A stretch of DNA of 40,000 bases from Nitrosopumilus sp. (GCF_965262695.1 NZ_OZ253550.1:233671-273670); one strand, 5' to 3'. Positions 14,151 to 29,528 are shown, counted from the first letter of the stretch. Numbers and translations are program-made. The notes: generated by a model from the sequence alone, not told the origin.

Positions 14151-15740
14151 CTACGTATACTCTGAAAGTGTTTTTGCTACTTGTTTTCTTCCTATATCTG
14201 AAATGAACGGTCCAATTTTTGGTCCTCTGGATGTCCCTAGAATAATTTGGTATAGTATCTTGAAGAAATCTTTTGGTTGCACGTCATTTGATTTTGCAAT
14301 TTGGTAAATTGTATTTTGAATGTCCACTGGCTCTTCATCTGCCCCAAGTGCTTCTGATAAGATCTTTAATGCTTTTTTTGCTGTTTCATCTAAATCAACT
14401 TGAGTTTTTTCTTGTTCATCAAATTCATCTGAATAATTCCCTGCAAGCTCAATTAGTTTTTCAATTTCTGGTTCTGGATTTTTTATTACTCCATAATCAA
14501 GTAATTTCTTCATCACTCTTTCGTTTCTGTTTTCTTTGAAGATCTTTGACAATTCAATTAACAATCTATAGTTTACATGTGTGCTAGCTTGTTTTGGAGG
14601 ATCTAGAAGATTTACGTATTCATAAAGTCCTTTTGATTTTACAAGTTTTGCTTGGTTATCTATTTTGATCCTTCCAAAGTTAATATCTTCTAATTCATTG
14701 TATTCATTCATCAAAGATGGTATGTCTTCTATACCAAGCTCACGTGCGCCTGTGATTCTTTTGTAAAGTAATAATAAAATTGATTTTGGACTGCCAAATT
14801 CTAACCATCTTTGTGCAGTCAATACGTTTCCTAATGATTTTGAAATCTTTTTTCCTCCCTTGTCTAAGAACATTTCATATTTTACATGGTGAGGATGTGG
14901 GAAATCTAAAATTTCATCTGCTACCCAGTCATTTACTTTAACTGAATCCATGATATCTTTTCCATATGCTTCAAATCTAATATCAAATGCTGCCCATCTT
15001 GCTGCAAACTCTACTTTCCATGCTAATTTTCCAAGGTCTTTTCCAATGTCTGCTTCTCCCTCATGACCGCAACCCTTGATCATTTGTGAGCCAATTTCTG
15101 CATCATGACATTTGTACTTGACTTTCTTTTCATCTGCAATGTACTCTGTTGCTTCTGCTGTGTAAAGACGATTACAGTTTGCGCAAACCGGAAAATATGG
15201 GAGATATTTTTGATATTTCTCCTGTCCGACTAATTCTGATATCTTGTCTCCAATCTTTGTGCTGTTTTGCAAAATGGTGTGTATGTTATCTTTGAGTAAT
15301 CCTTGCTTGTATGTGTCAACTGCTCTCCGGAATTCATATTTTATTCCAACCTTGTCTAGTCCATCCAAAAGAATACTGCTCATATGCATGCCATAGGAAT
15401 CATGACACCCATATGGATCTGGAATCAATGATACGGGTTTTGCCAAGTGTTCTTCTAACCCAAACTCGTGCATTCCCTCTGGAATTTTCCGTAATCCGTC
15501 TAAATCATCTGAATATGCAATAAGCTCAGATTTGTAACCCAAATTCTCTAATGCTAATTTTACACCATATGCTCTAACTGCATCTCCTAAACTTCCAATA
15601 TGTGGAATTCCTGATGCGCCAAGACCGCTTTCTACTCTAAGAAGTTCTAAATTTCTTCCAAGTGATTTTTCACGGTCAAGTAACTCTGAAGCTAACTTGT
15701 CAATCCAAGTTCCTTTTCCGATAATTTCTTGTTCTGACAT
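14151..15740 (-). CDS. lysK: lysyl-tRNA synthetase, class I
   Basis: HIGH-type motif (SGIPHIGSLGD) and KMSKS-type motif (KISKSLGN). The 529-aa length and overall sequence are typical of archaeal class I LysRS. Confidence 0.9.
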   Translation of the reverse strand: MSEQEIIGKGTWIDKLASELLDREKSLGRNLELLRVESGLGASGIPHIGSLGDAVRAYGVKLALENLGYKSELIAYSDDLDGLRKIPEGMHEFGLEEHLAKPVSLIPDPYGCHDSYGMHMSSILLDGLDKVGIKYEFRRAVDTYKQGLLKDNIHTILQNSTKIGDKISELVGQEKYQKYLPYFPVCANCNRLYTAEATEYIADEKKVKYKCHDAEIGSQMIKGCGHEGEADIGKDLGKLAWKVEFAARWAAFDIRFEAYGKDIMDSVKVNDWVADEILDFPHPHHVKYEMFLDKGGKKISKSLGNVLTAQRWLEFGSPKSILLLLYKRITGARELGIEDIPSLMNEYNELEDINFGRIKIDNQAKLVKSKGLYEYVNLLDPPKQASTHVNYRLLIELSKIFKENRNERVMKKLLDYGVIKNPEPEIEKLIELAGNYSDEFDEQEKTQVDLDETAKKALKILSEALGADEEPVDIQNTIYQIAKSNDVQPKDFFKILYQIILGTSRGPKIGPFISDIGRKQVAKTLSEYT

Positions 15741-15749
15741 TCCTCCTCA

Positions 15750-17333
15750 CTAATCTAATGTTTTGGACATGTATGGCCCATATAACGAATACCCTAACTT
15801 TTGATAATATTCTCTTGTCCCAACTGCACTGATTACCAATAATTCCTTTGCATCAAATTCTTCTCTTGAAATTTTTTCTGCTTCTCTCATCAGATTTTTT
15901 CCTAAACCTGAATGTTGTATTTCACTTTCTTCTTTCTCTCCAATCTTTAGTGATTTTCCATAAACATGAAGTTCTCTTACGATACAAGAGTTCTTACCGA
16001 CTTCATCTCTATGTGCACTATCACTTGGTTTTCTTAACCTCAAAAATCCGTAAATTGATTCATTTTTGTCTTCATATGACAAAAACACTTCTTTGCCTCC
16101 TGAAGAATCATAATCTATTCTAGTTAGATTGATGTCTTTATCTTCTGATTTTTTGTTCAAGCCGGCTTCTCTGCATCTAATACATTTGCATTTCATTCCT
16201 TGTTTTGCCAAATTTTGATGTACAATCTGTCTTAGATTTCCTGATTTTGGGCCTGCGATAATCTCATTTGGGGAAATTTCTCTTTGAACACGCATGATTC
16301 TAACCCATTTTGGGATGTTTTTCTTTGCCTCTGTTAGAACTTGAATCATATCTTCATCTGAATATGGGGCATACTTTCCATCTTTGTATTCTTGATACAT
16401 CGGAGTATTTTCAATAACTAATGATGGGTATATCTTGAGCATATCTGGCCGTAACTGTGAATCTGAAAACAGTTTCTTAAAATCTTCAATGTCTTCTTTT
16501 GGAGTCATTGTTGGCAATCCTGGCATCATATGTGCAACAATTTTGTATCCTGCATCTTTTGAAATTTGAAATGATTCTACAACATCATTGTAATTATGTC
16601 CTCGATTAACAATATTGTATACTCTTTCTTGTAATGATTGAACTCCAATCTCTATTCTTGTTACCCCATAATCTAACATCCAATCAACATGTTCTTTTTT
16701 ACAATAATCTGGTTTTGTTTCAATTGTAAATCCCACATTCCTGATTGCAGCATGTTCATTGTTTATTTTTGCTTCTTGCAAATTTTTAGAATCAGTTCCA
16801 TTAAGTGCATCATAACATGACTTGATAAAATTTTCTTGATAATCTTTTGGCATAAATAGAAATGTTCCTCCAACAATAACTATTTCCATCTTAGATGGGT
16901 CATGACCAAATGCAATTAGTTTATCAATTTTTGTTGTGATTTGTAATTTTGGATCATACTCATTTTCAATTGCATTTAGTGTTGATGGTTCATTTCCTGT
17001 ATAGCTGTTAGGTGAATTAAATTCAATCCCTCCTGGACAATACGTGCATCTTCCATGTGGACATGCAAATGGTTTTGGCATTAATGCTACTACTGCAACA
17101 CCTGATGCAGTCTTTGCAGGTTTTTTTAACAAAACTTTTCTTAGTTTTTTAAATTCTGATTCTTTTGCCATTGAAAGTATTTCATGATTTCTTGGAATTC
17201 TTTCTAGTGAATATTTGGCACAAATTTTCTTGATTTCTTCTTTGACTTGTTTTTTACTAGGCTCATTAATTGTTAGTAGATTTTGAGTGATTTCACTACA
17301 TGCCTTTGAAAACACTGAATCTAACTTACTCAT
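15750..17333 (-). CDS. elp3: Elp3-type radical SAM / acetyltransferase (tRNA U34 modification)
   Basis: Radical SAM cluster motif CPHGRCTYCPGG. C-terminal GNAT-like region (HSGLGKNLMREAEKI). 527 aa. Confidence 0.9.
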   Translation of the reverse strand: MSKLDSVFSKACSEITQNLLTINEPSKKQVKEEIKKICAKYSLERIPRNHEILSMAKESEFKKLRKVLLKKPAKTASGVAVVALMPKPFACPHGRCTYCPGGIEFNSPNSYTGNEPSTLNAIENEYDPKLQITTKIDKLIAFGHDPSKMEIVIVGGTFLFMPKDYQENFIKSCYDALNGTDSKNLQEAKINNEHAAIRNVGFTIETKPDYCKKEHVDWMLDYGVTRIEIGVQSLQERVYNIVNRGHNYNDVVESFQISKDAGYKIVAHMMPGLPTMTPKEDIEDFKKLFSDSQLRPDMLKIYPSLVIENTPMYQEYKDGKYAPYSDEDMIQVLTEAKKNIPKWVRIMRVQREISPNEIIAGPKSGNLRQIVHQNLAKQGMKCKCIRCREAGLNKKSEDKDINLTRIDYDSSGGKEVFLSYEDKNESIYGFLRLRKPSDSAHRDEVGKNSCIVRELHVYGKSLKIGEKEESEIQHSGLGKNLMREAEKISREEFDAKELLVISAVGTREYYQKLGYSLYGPYMSKTLD

Positions 17334-26087: not shown

Positions 26088-26456
26088 TTGGGAATTAATT
26101 ATAATGACATCACAAAAAAAATCCTCGATTTAGATCCTCAAGTAAGATTTGCTGGTGTTGCAAACAATAAGGGTGAACTTGCTGCAGGAGGGCAGAAAGA
26201 TGATGTTGAGAAACTATTGGTTGGTGATGAAGTAAAAATGTCCATTCATTATGCTTTACAAAAACGAGATTTGTATACAAATTTGGCATACAAAATTGGT
26301 AATGAGACTTCTTCCATTACAGAATATGAAAAAGTCACAATGATAACTATCCCAATAAACTCTAGTGAGCTATTCTTAATCAGCACTGAACCCCGTGCAG
26401 ATTATTTGAAAATCATTGACACTGTTCGCTCTGAACTTGGTTTATCTGGTGATTAA
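26088..26456 (+). CDS. hypothetical protein (possibly Roadblock/LC7-like alpha/beta fold)
   Basis: 122-aa ORF starting (TTG) 15 nt after the amt stop. The alternating pattern VRFAGVANNKGELAAGG...KVTMITIPINSSELFLISTEP loosely recalls Roadblock/LC7. This cannot be verified here. Confidence 0.45.
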   Translation: MGINYNDITKKILDLDPQVRFAGVANNKGELAAGGQKDDVEKLLVGDEVKMSIHYALQKRDLYTNLAYKIGNETSSITEYEKVTMITIPINSSELFLISTEPRADYLKIIDTVRSELGLSGD

Positions 26457-26601
26457 TTTAGTACGAAGAATTACAGTCACCATGGATGATAAATTAGTAA
26501 AAAAAATCTATCTTCTTCAAGCCAAAGAAATCACAAAATCTCAAAAACACATTAGTTTCTCAAACATCATCAATTTGCAATTGAAACGTGCACTAAAATA
26601 G
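26449..26601 (+). CDS. putative ribbon-helix-helix (CopG/Arc-like) DNA-binding protein
   Basis: RRITVTMDDKLVKKIYLLQAKEI...ISFSNIINLQLKRAL gives a strand-helix-helix pattern. I favour the in-frame GTG at 26449, which overlaps the upstream stop as GTGATTAA. The track's TTG at 26416 is the longest option. Confidence 0.45.
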   Translation: MINLVRRITVTMDDKLVKKIYLLQAKEITKSQKHISFSNIINLQLKRALK

Positions 26602-26654: not shown

Positions 26655-26676
26655 GGTAGTTTGGAAATTAACTCTA
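26655..26676 (+). repeat. partial third copy of the 60-bp intergenic module (ggtag...gaaattaactcta)
   Basis: The 13-mer gaaattaactcta (26664-26676) is identical to module copy B. The preceding ggtag also matches. Confidence 0.5.
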
Positions 26677-26771
26677 TTTATCCGGCAAGTTATGTACCTT
26701 GTATCATAACCAATTTGAATTTATATCAAAAATTAGCCAGTTTCATGAGCCGTGAAGTTCATGGTAAATTG

Positions 26772-26835
26772 AAACACAAGGTCATGACCGCCCTGTTGTA
26801 AACCTTGATCAAGTAGTGGTGGCTTGTGTTTTTTT
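26772..26835 (+). terminator. long-loop hairpin (aaacacaag / cttgtgttt) running into a T7 tract between convergent genes
   Basis: 9-bp perfect arms at 26772-26780 and 26823-26831. The 42-nt GC-richer loop contains the palindrome gtcatgac. A T7 run lies at 26829-26835, 11 nt before the stop of the minus-strand gene. Confidence 0.3.
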
Positions 26836-26845
26836 ATTTACATAA

Positions 26846-27409
26846 TTAAGTCAGAAATGCAATTCTGGCAATATCTCTTTCATGAAAAAACATTTTTTCT
26901 CCAAATTCAATTTCAGACGTAATCTCATTTTTTTCATCACGAATTATTTGTTTAGGGTTTACAATAACTATGTCTTTTTTATCTTCAACATCTAGTCTAA
27001 AAAGTCGACCTTTATACTCAGTACCTGCTATGGTTATCACAATTATCCAAGGAGCATTATCATATTCTGTAGCCGTTTTTTCCCATGTGTCAAGACGAAA
27101 TCGATTAGATCTTCGACGTCTTAAAATCATTCCAACTCCAAATCCAACTGCTAAAGTGATTCCAAATAAAATCAAGAAATTTGTTGGAATAAAGAATTTG
27201 TCTCGTAAAATATCTAGACTTGTGATACCCGTAATCAATGTGTAGAAAAATATTATTACCATACTAAGACTAAAACTTGAAATTGTAATTTTGAATTCTG
27301 TTTGCTTATTTCCATAATGTCCTAACCATCTAATTATTGTAAATGTGATAAAACCTGGAATCAATAAAATTACAACAATTAATGCATCTGCTAAGGATGG
27401 TAATGCCAT
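26846..27409 (-). CDS. hypothetical membrane protein (3 TM plus C-terminal beta-rich soluble domain)
   Basis: 187-aa ORF. N-terminal LLIPGFITF TM and two further TMs, an RRRRSNR stop-transfer, then WIIVITIAGTEYKGRLFRLDVEDKKDIVIVNP beta-strand-like repeats. Confidence 0.55.
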   Translation of the reverse strand: MALPSLADALIVVILLIPGFITFTIIRWLGHYGNKQTEFKITISSFSLSMVIIFFYTLITGITSLDILRDKFFIPTNFLILFGITLAVGFGVGMILRRRRSNRFRLDTWEKTATEYDNAPWIIVITIAGTEYKGRLFRLDVEDKKDIVIVNPKQIIRDEKNEITSEIEFGEKMFFHERDIARIAFLT

Positions 27410-27414
27410 GCCAC

Positions 27415-27627
27415 TTATTCAGATTTTTCTTTCTTTTTTGGAGATGGTGTTGGAGGTTCAGGTGTTGCACTTGAAACTTTAAAACTTACAGATTCAGATA
27501 ACTGTGAAAATTTTGTCTCTGTTTTTTCTTTTTTACTAGATGATTCATTTTCTACCATATTCTTAGTTGATACAATTACCATATAAAGACAAGTATTAAA
27601 CAAGAAATTCAACAACCAATTAAGCAT
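27415..27627 (-). CDS. small hypothetical protein (hydrophobic N-terminus, Ser/Lys/Pro-rich tail)
   Basis: 70-aa ORF ending 5 nt before the 187-aa gene start. It is preceded by module copy A, whose TATA-like aaaataat lies 28 nt upstream of the ATG. Confidence 0.4.
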   Translation of the reverse strand: MLNWLLNFLFNTCLYMVIVSTKNMVENESSSKKEKTETKFSQLSESVSFKVSSATPEPPTPSPKKKEKSE

Positions 27628-27634
27628 ATTTCAC

Positions 27635-27693
27635 GCCTAATTTTGTGAAGTTTTCATTATTTTGCGCAGAAAGTGGGTGAAATGAACTCTATT
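27635..27693 (+). repeat. 60-bp intergenic repeat module, copy A
   Basis: gcctaattttgtgaagttttcattattttgcgcagaaagtgggtgaaatgaactctatt. It has 54 identical positions over 62 aligned columns versus copy B. Confidence 0.85.
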
Positions 27694-27699
27694 CTCATT

Positions 27700-27978
27700 T
27701 CAATAATTCTGTGTTAGATTCGAATCATCATAATACTCTTTGAGAAATTCATCTAGTTTGTCAAAGGTTTCTTGATTCAATTTTCCATCATGATATAACT
27801 TACTTACAAACATGGCAATTTTTGTAAGAAGTTTACTTTGTTCATCAAGTTTTGTTTGTGTGGATTTTACAATTTCAAGAATTTCACTGATTGCTTCTTT
27901 TTGCCAATCTAGATCTTGTTTTTCCAGAATTTTTGAAACTTCGGATATTTTTTTGAGATGTCCCATATAATTAGCCAT
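27700..27978 (-). CDS. hypothetical helical protein
   Basis: 92-aa ORF. No motif recognised. Confidence 0.45.
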   Translation of the reverse strand: MANYMGHLKKISEVSKILEKQDLDWQKEAISEILEIVKSTQTKLDEQSKLLTKIAMFVSKLYHDGKLNQETFDKLDEFLKEYYDDSNLTQNY

Positions 27979-28068
27979 ATTGTTCTAAAACACTCATGAA
28001 ATAAAAATTAATTATCATAAAAAACGATTTTCTTAAAGTATTAAATCAAAGTCACTATAAATCATCAT

Positions 28069-28374
28069 ATGACTGAGATTGATCCTTTGGCAATTGTACA
28101 AATAAACGCTACAGTGATAACGGGTCTTTTGATACTTCTTACAATTACTAATTTAGTCAAAAGAATAGAAGGATTCTGGATGCCAAAAGCCGTAAGCGGG
28201 GCGGTCATACCATTTGTGATGTCATCAGTTCTTGCATTGTTAGATTACATTACGATTGGTAATGCAGTTGGAGATTTCGCATTGATTTCAATAGGATCTA
28301 TGATAGTGGGATTTATCGTGTTAGGGTTCATGATAATAAAAATATCCTCAGTGAAATTATGGAAAGATAAATGA
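28069..28374 (+). CDS. hypothetical membrane protein (3 TM)
   Basis: 101-aa ORF with three hydrophobic helices. Divergent from 27700..27978. Confidence 0.5.
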   Translation: MTEIDPLAIVQINATVITGLLILLTITNLVKRIEGFWMPKAVSGAVIPFVMSSVLALLDYITIGNAVGDFALISIGSMIVGFIVLGFMIIKISSVKLWKDK

Positions 28375-28468
28375 AATTAACAAAAACAGTTTAGAGGGAA
28401 GCCAGAATATGGAAAAATACTCGTAGTCTTTAAACTAACAAATTTCCTCCCAACTATGTTCATATTGA

Positions 28469-28530
28469 GCCTAATTGCATGAAGTTTTCAATTATTTTAC
28501 GCAGAAAGTGGGTAGAAATTAACTCTAATT
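28469..28530 (+). repeat. 60-bp intergenic repeat module, copy B
   Basis: gcctaattgcatgaagttttcaattattttacgcagaaagtgggtagaaattaactctaatt. Same orientation as copy A. Confidence 0.85.
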
Positions 28531-28592
28531 GCTTGAATTGTAAAATTATAGTAAATGGCTCCCTTTAAACCCCTAAACCTTGAAACTTTCTT

Positions 28593-29528
28593 GTGGAAGT
28601 AGTAATCAGTGCCATTCTTACTGTTGTAGGATTGGTGATGTTATGTTTTGGTGGTAACTGGTTAGTTAGCGGTGGTGTCACTATTGCCCGAAAATTTCGT
28701 ATAAGTAATCTTGTAATTGGAATGACTATTGTAGCGTATGGTACTTCTACACCAGAACTTGCTGCAAGTATTGCAGCTGCCGGAGACCACAGTGCAATTA
28801 TTTTGGGAAATATCATTGGAAGTAATATTGCAAACGTTGGTATGGTGATTGGTATTGCAGCAATACTTGTTCCTCTTGCAATTAAAAAATCTGTACTTCG
28901 TAAAGAAATTCCAATCATGTTGGGTGTTTCTGTTTTGTTAATTTTGATTTCAATTGACGGTGAATTGTCTCATTATGATGGAATATTACTTCTTGTTGGA
29001 TTGGGTGTCTTTGGATATTATACTTTCAAAGACGCAATGAAACAAAGACAAGATGATAAAGAAGATGTAAAACAAAACGGAGGTAATGTATATCTAAAAT
29101 CCATTGGTCTAATTGGACTTGGTATTGGTCTTTTGTATATTGGAGCATTTTTGACAGTTGACAATGCGGTGATTCTTGCCAAAGAGTTTGGTTTATCTGA
29201 AAAAATTATTGGTTTAACAGTAATTGCAATTGGAACCTCTCTTCCAGAATTAATTACCTCACTTATTGCAATTAGAAAGGGGCATAGCGATATTGGTGTT
29301 GGAAATATCATTGGAAGTAACATCTACAACATTTTGATGATTATGGGAGTAGGTGCTGCACTTGGTGGTGTAATGATTTCTGCTGATGTTTATGTTGATT
29401 ATGCAATTATGATTTTATTCAGTCTCTCATTGCTAATTGGCCTCAAAACAGGCGTGATTAACAGGGTAATGGGTGTCTGTCTTGCAATTGGATATGTTGC
29501 ATACCTGGTATTGACATTTTTCAAATAA
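28593..29528 (+). CDS. Ca2+/cation antiporter (CaCA family, YrbG-like)
   Basis: Two alpha-repeat signatures, GTSTPELAASI...GNIIGSNIANVG and GTSLPELITSL...GNIIGSNIYNIL. About 10 TM helices. GTG start. Confidence 0.85.
   Translation: MEVVISAILTVVGLVMLCFGGNWLVSGGVTIARKFRISNLVIGMTIVAYGTSTPELAASIAAAGDHSAIILGNIIGSNIANVGMVIGIAAILVPLAIKKSVLRKEIPIMLGVSVLLILISIDGELSHYDGILLLVGLGVFGYYTFKDAMKQRQDDKEDVKQNGGNVYLKSIGLIGLGIGLLYIGAFLTVDNAVILAKEFGLSEKIIGLTVIAIGTSLPELITSLIAIRKGHSDIGVGNIIGSNIYNILMIMGVGAALGGVMISADVYVDYAIMILFSLSLLIGLKTGVINRVMGVCLAIGYVAYLVLTFFK

Follow-up and report, generated by a model that had tools for sequence, protein, structure and literature searches.

Two direct repeats, probably relics of a mobile-element junction, in a strain-specific insertion upstream of a Nitrosopumilus Na+/Ca2+ exchanger gene

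Our study concerns a module of about 60 nucleotides (nt) that occurs twice, in direct orientation, in a 40,000-nt stretch of the genome of Nitrosopumilus sp. (GCF_965262695.1, NZ_OZ253550.1). This stretch, referred to here as the window, comprises bases 233671-273670 of a one-contig genome of 1,588,109 bp and 33.9% G+C, and its gene content, with Amt, PII and FO synthase, and its relatives fit a Nitrosopumilus-type ammonia-oxidising archaeon. We propose that the two copies are probably relics of a mobile-element junction and not a promoter or operator. The proposal draws on an insertion and the corresponding empty site in close relatives, on the homology of the module to a block that adjoins a transposase gene, on a break point identical in both copies, and on a revised start and promoter for the gene next to copy A.

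Copy A (27635-27693) and copy B (28469-28530), the two full copies, show about 88% identity; their local alignment has 52 identities over 59 columns, with five mismatches and two single-base gaps, and the pair was also aligned with MAFFT. Each contains an exact copy of the 14-mer CGCAGAAAGTGGGT, which has 2 matches in the window at up to two mismatches, against 0.10 expected, and no match in the genome at up to one mismatch beyond copies A and B. Exact copies of the 13-mer GAAATTAACTCTA stand at 26664 and 28515, and one with a single mismatch at 27679; in the 1.59-Mb genome the exact form occurs only at the first two of these places, the outer junctions of the insertion described below. A blastn-short search with the module against the whole genome returned A and B as the sole matches, and a self-comparison of intergenic sequence across the genome gave 13 local repeat pairs in all, one of which is A/B. 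Across the 150 other genomes of the genus, one per species, that served as our comparison set, matches to the module or the 14-mer were at chance level (for the 14-mer at up to one mismatch, 10 against 13 for the reversed control), and none of the flanks of those ten resembles the surroundings of the module. An exact 23-mer common to A and B was not found in genome, viral or metagenome contig collections. The repeat pair is genuine, is not due to chance and belongs to this genome alone. An earlier, sequence-only reading had described the two copies in one orientation and the recurrence of the 13-mer at 26664-26676, and both hold; its statement that the window has no comparable repeats elsewhere is true for this repeat family, and the genome-wide search it called for extends the count of two like-oriented copies to the whole genome.

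Other identities considered for the module were rejected or set aside. The boxes of a C/D-box small RNA are absent by eye, and Rfam covariance models gave no match inside either copy at E <= 5. Coding sequence was rejected on the ground that indels put A and B in different frames. A resemblance of the left arm of the module to the native flanks had inconsistent registers, with p from 0.002 to 0.5 over six tests, and was not relied on.

Comparison with close relatives defines the DNA in which the modules lie. In the closest metagenomic relatives, L053 and L089, whose exchanger (antiporter) protein is 95% and 90% identical at the amino acid (aa) level, the DUF6659 gene, a small RHH-like open reading frame (ORF) and the sequence left of the 13-mer at 26664 (copy C) are all kept, and a single TAGAAATTAACTCTA runs directly into the promoter region of the exchanger gene. 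Window position ~26679 is there joined to ~28513, with one copy of the 13-mer in the empty locus where the window has one at each outer junction. This single-copy joint marks 26677-28527 (1851 bp) as inserted DNA, bounded by an outer direct repeat of 13 nt, possibly 15, and on this comparison the segment is an insertion into the regulatory region upstream of the Na+/Ca2+ exchanger gene. None of 80 related loci that were searched contains any part of the insert, the G+C content of which is slightly low, at 29-31%. The sequence-only reading had offered as an alternative that the repeats bracket the gene pair at 27700-28374 like scars of duplication or recombination; the empty sites support this and widen it to the whole insert. 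The locus runs from the DUF6659 gene and the RHH-like ORF through copy C, the DUF6338 gene, a small ORF, module A, the genes for the 92-aa and 101-aa proteins and module B to the exchanger gene, and its features are as follows.

26088-26456, plus strand: DUF6659 gene
26482-26601, plus strand: small RHH-like ORF, left of copy C
26664-26676, plus strand: 13-mer GAAATTAACTCTA, copy C, exact match; native target sequence at the left junction of the insertion
26677-28527, no strand: strain-specific insertion, 1851 bp, with the 13-mer direct repeat at its bounds
26759-26835, plus strand: hairpin-rich element with a run of seven T at its end, at the distal end of unit 1; RNA fold z = -2.75
26846-27409, minus strand: DUF6338 membrane protein, 187 aa (PF19865, E = 4.7e-9); second gene of the cassette
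27415-27558, minus strand: 47-aa charged protein, its start at 27558 set by alignment with 47-, 45-, 37- and 63-aa homologues
27581-27587, minus strand: TTTATAT box read from the sequence, at -29 of the ATG at 27558 and outside the module
27596-27664, minus strand: copy A relic of the 31-aa micro-ORF region, 74% identical (E = 1.5e-4) to the block in genome G021, startless and with an in-frame stop
27665-27678, plus strand: copy A 14-mer CGCAGAAAGTGGGT, in the place of the transposase 3' end
27679-27691, plus strand: copy A 13-mer GAAATGAACTCTA, one mismatch; internal junction of units 1 and 2
27700-27978, minus strand: 92-aa helical protein (ORF, no significant family); unit 2 cargo
28069-28374, plus strand: 101-aa membrane protein (ORF); unit 2 cargo
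28469-28499, minus strand: copy B relic, in alignments more decayed than that of A
28500-28513, plus strand: copy B 14-mer CGCAGAAAGTGGGT, exact match
28515-28527, plus strand: copy B 13-mer at the right junction, running on into the native antiporter upstream region
28593-29528, plus strand: Na+/Ca2+ exchanger gene (Pfam Na_Ca_ex, E = 7.7e-55), with the insertion target in its conserved upstream region

The origin of most of the module is indicated by a search with 27560-27700, which gave short significant matches in several genomes of the genus. Positions 27596-27663 match a block at the 3' end of a transposase gene, in an alignment of ~55-70 nt that ends in GTTTAA and took in the genus matches, the upstream regions of the L133 and L137 cassettes described below and both window copies. 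The block directly follows or overlaps the transposase 3' end in G021, G086, G014, G155, G156, G015, G017, G048 and L137-139; G154 and L133 have it as a lone remnant. A degenerate pattern written for the core of the block matched 10 sites in 9 of the 150 genomes, and its reversed control matched none. The transposase is IS6-like, with a DDE_Tnp_IS240 domain (E = 2e-18), a length of 372 aa and a SWIM-like N-terminus. The gene is multicopy in the genus, three genomes having 7, 9 and (in G154) 37 matches, and in G021 (C1:1780553-1788394; L158, L154, L161) three direct copies have 1.8-2.7 kb of cargo between them. The sole full copy in the genome studied here lies outside the window, at 14802-15896 (tblastn); a three-copy repeat near it was examined as a candidate element end and proved to consist of the C-terminal parts of paralogous genes.

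The block can be read as a 31-aa ORF, MENxDSERKQKxKKxAKLGVKCAWLVVDxLx, the stop of which coincides with the end of similarity between loci. The degenerate core pattern permits mostly synonymous change, leaving only five codons beyond it unbiased for coding constraint; in these the third positions vary and V-D-aromatic-L-V is kept. This micro-ORF (L149:1471-1566 in G021; L174-L183) overlaps the last ~35 nt of the transposase gene, has a basic N-terminus and a hydrophobic C-terminus, and is often kept beside truncated transposase genes; it could encode an addiction-type peptide or be part of the element end.

Both window copies of the block are pseudogenes; A lacks a start and is interrupted in frame by a TAA, and B has decayed further. 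Both break at one same point, at which the 14-mer and the 13-mer replace the transposase end, and this identical break argues that A and B descend from one junction.

Read on the minus strand, the module is made up of three pieces: a 13-nt chromosomal target sequence, a 14-nt joint, and ~35-70 nt from the region after an IS6-like transposase gene. Each copy stands at the head of one cargo unit, A heading a cassette of the 47-aa and DUF6338 genes and B heading an unrelated pair of small genes, and the two units make up the 1851-bp insertion. Such an array may have formed in the manner of IS6 elements, with a directly repeated element copy before each captured segment; alternatively, a circular molecule of relic plus cargo could have recombined homologously with a resident relic. 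In either case the 13-mer held in common with the chromosome may have guided the joint. In the IS6 family direct copies flank captured DNA, arrays form and homologous recombination excises or inserts units, and for IS26 both array formation and the circle-relic recombination route are documented (PMC7986276). In Thaumarchaeota, integration repeats have a median length of only 17 bp, intergenic DNA holds 15 of 68 elements, and sites are re-used in tandem (PMC6563490).

Several observations weigh against this origin. Copy-in transposition by IS6 elements produces 8-bp duplications, and here the repeat is of 13. The ORFs in or adjoining the insertion include no transposase or integrase, terminal inverted repeats were not found for the full element copy in G021, so that its ends are undefined, and a search for the source of the 14-mer found none. 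The block is single-copy per genome though the transposase is multicopy, which would confine the block to one sub-lineage. In copy B the in-register similarity past 28469 is weak, extending perhaps to ~28425 (tail test p = 0.08), and the 60-nt core of A and B is far better conserved than the adjoining tail; this strong conservation could reflect constraint or gene conversion. A casposon or another transposon with a long target duplication was rejected as an alternative source: terminal inverted repeats are lacking, and no casposase or transposase is found among the insertion ORFs. As read from the sequence, the ends of the insertion have no inverted similarity.

The cargo bears on both the origin of the module and its supposed function. 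Unit 1 (26677-27691) consists of a TATA box, the 47-aa gene, the DUF6338 gene and the hairpin/T-run element, and is predicted to be a complete, self-contained expression unit. The DUF6338 protein has few relatives, with one weak homologue in the 150 genomes, and every contig that has one carries a gene of 37-63 aa 3-12 nt upstream. The sequence-only reading took the corresponding gene of the window to be a 70-aa ORF starting at 27627. The small-protein homologues (47, 45, 37 and 63 aa), which have a common tail EPPTP..KKK, align to residues 24-70 of this ORF, from Met24, and its 23-codon extension up to 27627 is non-coding DNA in the homologues. This alignment places the real start at 27558 and the protein at 47 aa; the 70-aa ORF is, on this evidence, over-extended. 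The TTTATAT box has a counterpart at the same distance in L133, and a similar box is found in L137. The median positions of TATA-like hexamers across the genome fall near -30 to -33, and the location of TTTATAT at -29 agrees with these and with the positions of the tRNA promoters, so that 27587-27581 is likely where the cassette has its real promoter. At the far end of the unit, the element at 26759-26835 (~80 nt) is G+C-richer and has a single homologue (78%) in G003 (C12:114202-114279), where changes look compensatory; probably it acts as a terminator in both directions, or else it is a small structured RNA.

The cargo of unit 2 (27692-28527), unrelated to the unit 1 cassette, is a pair of ORFan genes that have a divergent promoter region of their own. 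Homologues of the 92-aa protein, at 45-47% identity, occur in 2 of the 150 genomes; the closest relative of the 101-aa protein in G021 (61% over 52 aa) directly follows a Phage_integrase-family gene. Searches of five small proteins against PHROGs, PADLOC and NCBIfam gave nothing significant, and exact-protein look-ups of the 92-aa and 187-aa proteins returned no record. The joint of relic to cassette recurs elsewhere, after a transposase fragment at L137-139 and after a tyrosine integrase at L133, where the cassette also lies beside MT-A70 and MunI-type (restriction-modification) genes; this recurrence beside transposase and integrase genes shows that the cassette travels with mobile elements. 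The pair of a small charged protein and a DUF6338 protein forms a conserved two-gene unit in L133, L134-L136 and L140. Its neighbours include restriction-modification (MT-A70, MunI-type), caspase-like and HATPase_c_3 genes, a context like that of a defence island.

An alternative that we regard as unlikely treats the 13-mer as the core of an attachment (att) site and the adjoining ~46 nt as an element-side arm; a tyrosine recombinase supplied in trans would have inserted two small integrase-less cassettes in tandem, as at re-used integration sites or in an integron-like array. The order of 13-mer, unit 1, arm plus 13-mer, unit 2, arm plus 13-mer fits tandem site-specific integration, and att sites in Thaumarchaeota are short, sometimes intergenic and open to re-use in tandem (PMC6563490). 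PF00589 matches in the genome lie at 872923-873420 and 1141735-1142262 only, with none in the insertion; one of these two tyrosine recombinases is 57% identical to the integrase beside the L133 cassette. The homologue of the 101-aa protein adjoins an integrase in G021, and short inverted arms, TAGA/TCTA, can be read around AATTAAC. However, C and A have unrelated sequences on the right-hand side of the core, which argues against the units being copies of one element. Nor is the module attC-like, since it forms no hairpin: single-stranded DNA folds of both copies on both strands gave -3 to -5 kcal/mol, with z from -0.33 to +0.62. Neither 13-mer nor module resembles the DNA around the integrase genes of this genome, no further copy of the module turned up in the 150 genomes or three contig collections, and the transposase-adjacent relic explains most of the supposed arm.

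Nothing was found to connect the 13-mer with the integrase island at 1134-1143 kb. The second tyrosine integrase (1141528-1142628), the one 57% identical to the L133 integrase, heads this island (1134000-1143000), which has a C5-methyltransferase-like gene and a Vsr-like gene. The genome has other local intergenic direct repeats outside the window (902395-902499/909093-909198, 904623/906491 and 873797/874143); a 107-nt pair 6.7 kb apart has a promoter-like GAATTAAC at -30 and a 16-aa micro-ORF, and an 87-nt pair directly follows the integrase gene 872446-873798.

It is quite unlikely, in our estimation, that the 13-mer and module together are a working recombination site, in which a truncated IS6-type end would serve as a portable landing pad for cassettes. 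Small self-expressed cassettes would then stack upstream of a housekeeping transporter gene, through homologous recombination or a recombinase in trans, and the 60-nt core would be under selection. If true, a transposon relic would have given a marine ammonia oxidiser of the Thaumarchaeota an integron-like platform for cassettes.

We strongly doubt that a stretch of ~60-100 nt was simply duplicated in situ, by slippage or break repair, when the 27700-28374 pair inserted, leaving a functionless repeat with no element-encoded mechanism. The repeat family does have two copies only, private to this genome, and A and B do have the same internal junction. Against this, A and B are ~12% diverged, the internal 13-mer carries a mismatch, the cargo lies beside mobile-element genes elsewhere, which points to repeated mobile-element activity, and a target duplication of 60-100 nt is no known outcome of simple insertion.

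Least probable, at a very small chance, is the idea, advanced by the sequence-only reading, of the module as a shared promoter/operator that co-regulates minus-strand ORFs downstream of both copies; the shared orientation, the resemblance of the AT-rich AAAATAAT to the antiporter upstream sequence GTAAAATTATAG, an ATG 36-37 nt downstream in both copies and the better conservation of the 60-nt core than of its flanks speak for it, but the ATG at 27627, with its TATA-like box 27-28 nt upstream, is displaced by the real start at 27558 with a TTTATAT of its own outside the module, copy B has before it only a 28-aa ORF that lacks support, followed by the 3' end of a convergent gene, the supposed ~30-bp operator has no further genomic 14-mer sites above control and no credible gene at copy B, and family searches found no regulator gene among the insertion proteins. 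A matrix for the transcription factor B recognition element and TATA box, built from the 36 tRNA promoters of this genome, scored AAAATAAT below 3 bits and no position in the modules above 5.2 bits; it separates the upstream regions of protein genes poorly (median best score 3.0 against 2.8 for the control), so that these low scores are weak evidence alone. It was used in place of a de novo matrix from ORF upstream regions, which drifted to a coding-like pattern; a scan for bacterial-type promoters and terminators was uninformative for an archaeon, and a 14-mer regulon was discarded when near-matches in the genome did not exceed the reversed-pattern control.

The native surroundings of the insertion show how the locus is otherwise arranged. 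The DUF6659 and exchanger genes are adjacent in five of the sampled genomes of the genus, and in at least seven others the neighbour of the exchanger gene is a divergent winged helix-turn-helix gene. The RHH-like ORF at 26482-26601 is native, being present in the empty-site loci L053 and L089 and absent where DUF6659 directly adjoins the exchanger. Other occupied states of the locus (L062, G024) were considered and set aside; their genes differ and the junction repeats are not shared. Upstream of the exchanger gene, 28515-28592 (also in L002-L012 and L053-L132) contains four 9-mers, GAAATTAAC, TTGAATTGT twice and GAAATTATA, followed by a conserved TTTAAAC ~29 nt before the GTG start; these are likely an operator array and the TATA box of a leaderless mRNA. 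The insertion separated all sequence upstream of the first 9-mer.

The insertion itself is the ordinary footprint of gene gain through mobile elements. What it offers is a view, at the level of base pairs, of how a streamlined marine ammonia-oxidising archaeon gained four accessory genes in the control region of its Na+/Ca2+ exchanger, together with the mending of one gene start, one promoter and one spurious ORF in the annotation. Its by-products may prove of greater use than the repeat: evidence that Nitrosopumilus has IS6-like elements with arrays of cargo, in a domain for which a 2019 study reported composite transposons as undetected (PMC6563490); a conserved gene for a 31-aa micro-protein that overlaps the transposase 3' end; and a mobile pair of a small charged protein and a DUF6338 protein near restriction-modification and other defence-type genes.

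Set beside known systems, the locus shares with integron cassettes and their attC sites the stacking in one place of small, promoter-proximal cargo units, each closed by a conserved ~60-nt site. It differs from them in having no imperfect hairpin, no IntI or attI, cassettes with their own promoters and two units only. The integrated elements of Thaumarchaeota (Krupovic et al. 2019, PMC6563490) likewise use a short intergenic direct repeat (13 bp here), with tandem use of the site, an empty site in close relatives and ORFan cargo; unlike them, the insertion described here is of 1.85 kb and integrase-less. One cryptic integrated element in that study measures 20.2 kb, far larger than this insertion.

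The pseudo-compound transposons and arrays of the IS6 family (IS26/IS240-type) differ in several respects. Here a post-transposase relic of ~35-70 nt is all that remains, with no transposase in 26677-28527; the outer repeat is 13 bp against 8; terminal inverted repeats of ~14 bp were not found; and both relics share one truncation point, with the element ends undefined. The archaeal transposase is also longer than that of IS26 (372 aa, with its SWIM-like N-terminus) and is overlapped by a 31-aa micro-ORF not described for IS26. In the IS6 arrays, as in the arrangement proposed here, direct element copies precede each captured segment, the related transposase has the DDE_Tnp_IS240 domain, the G021 array of three direct copies looks live, and recombination between copies of the element can add units.

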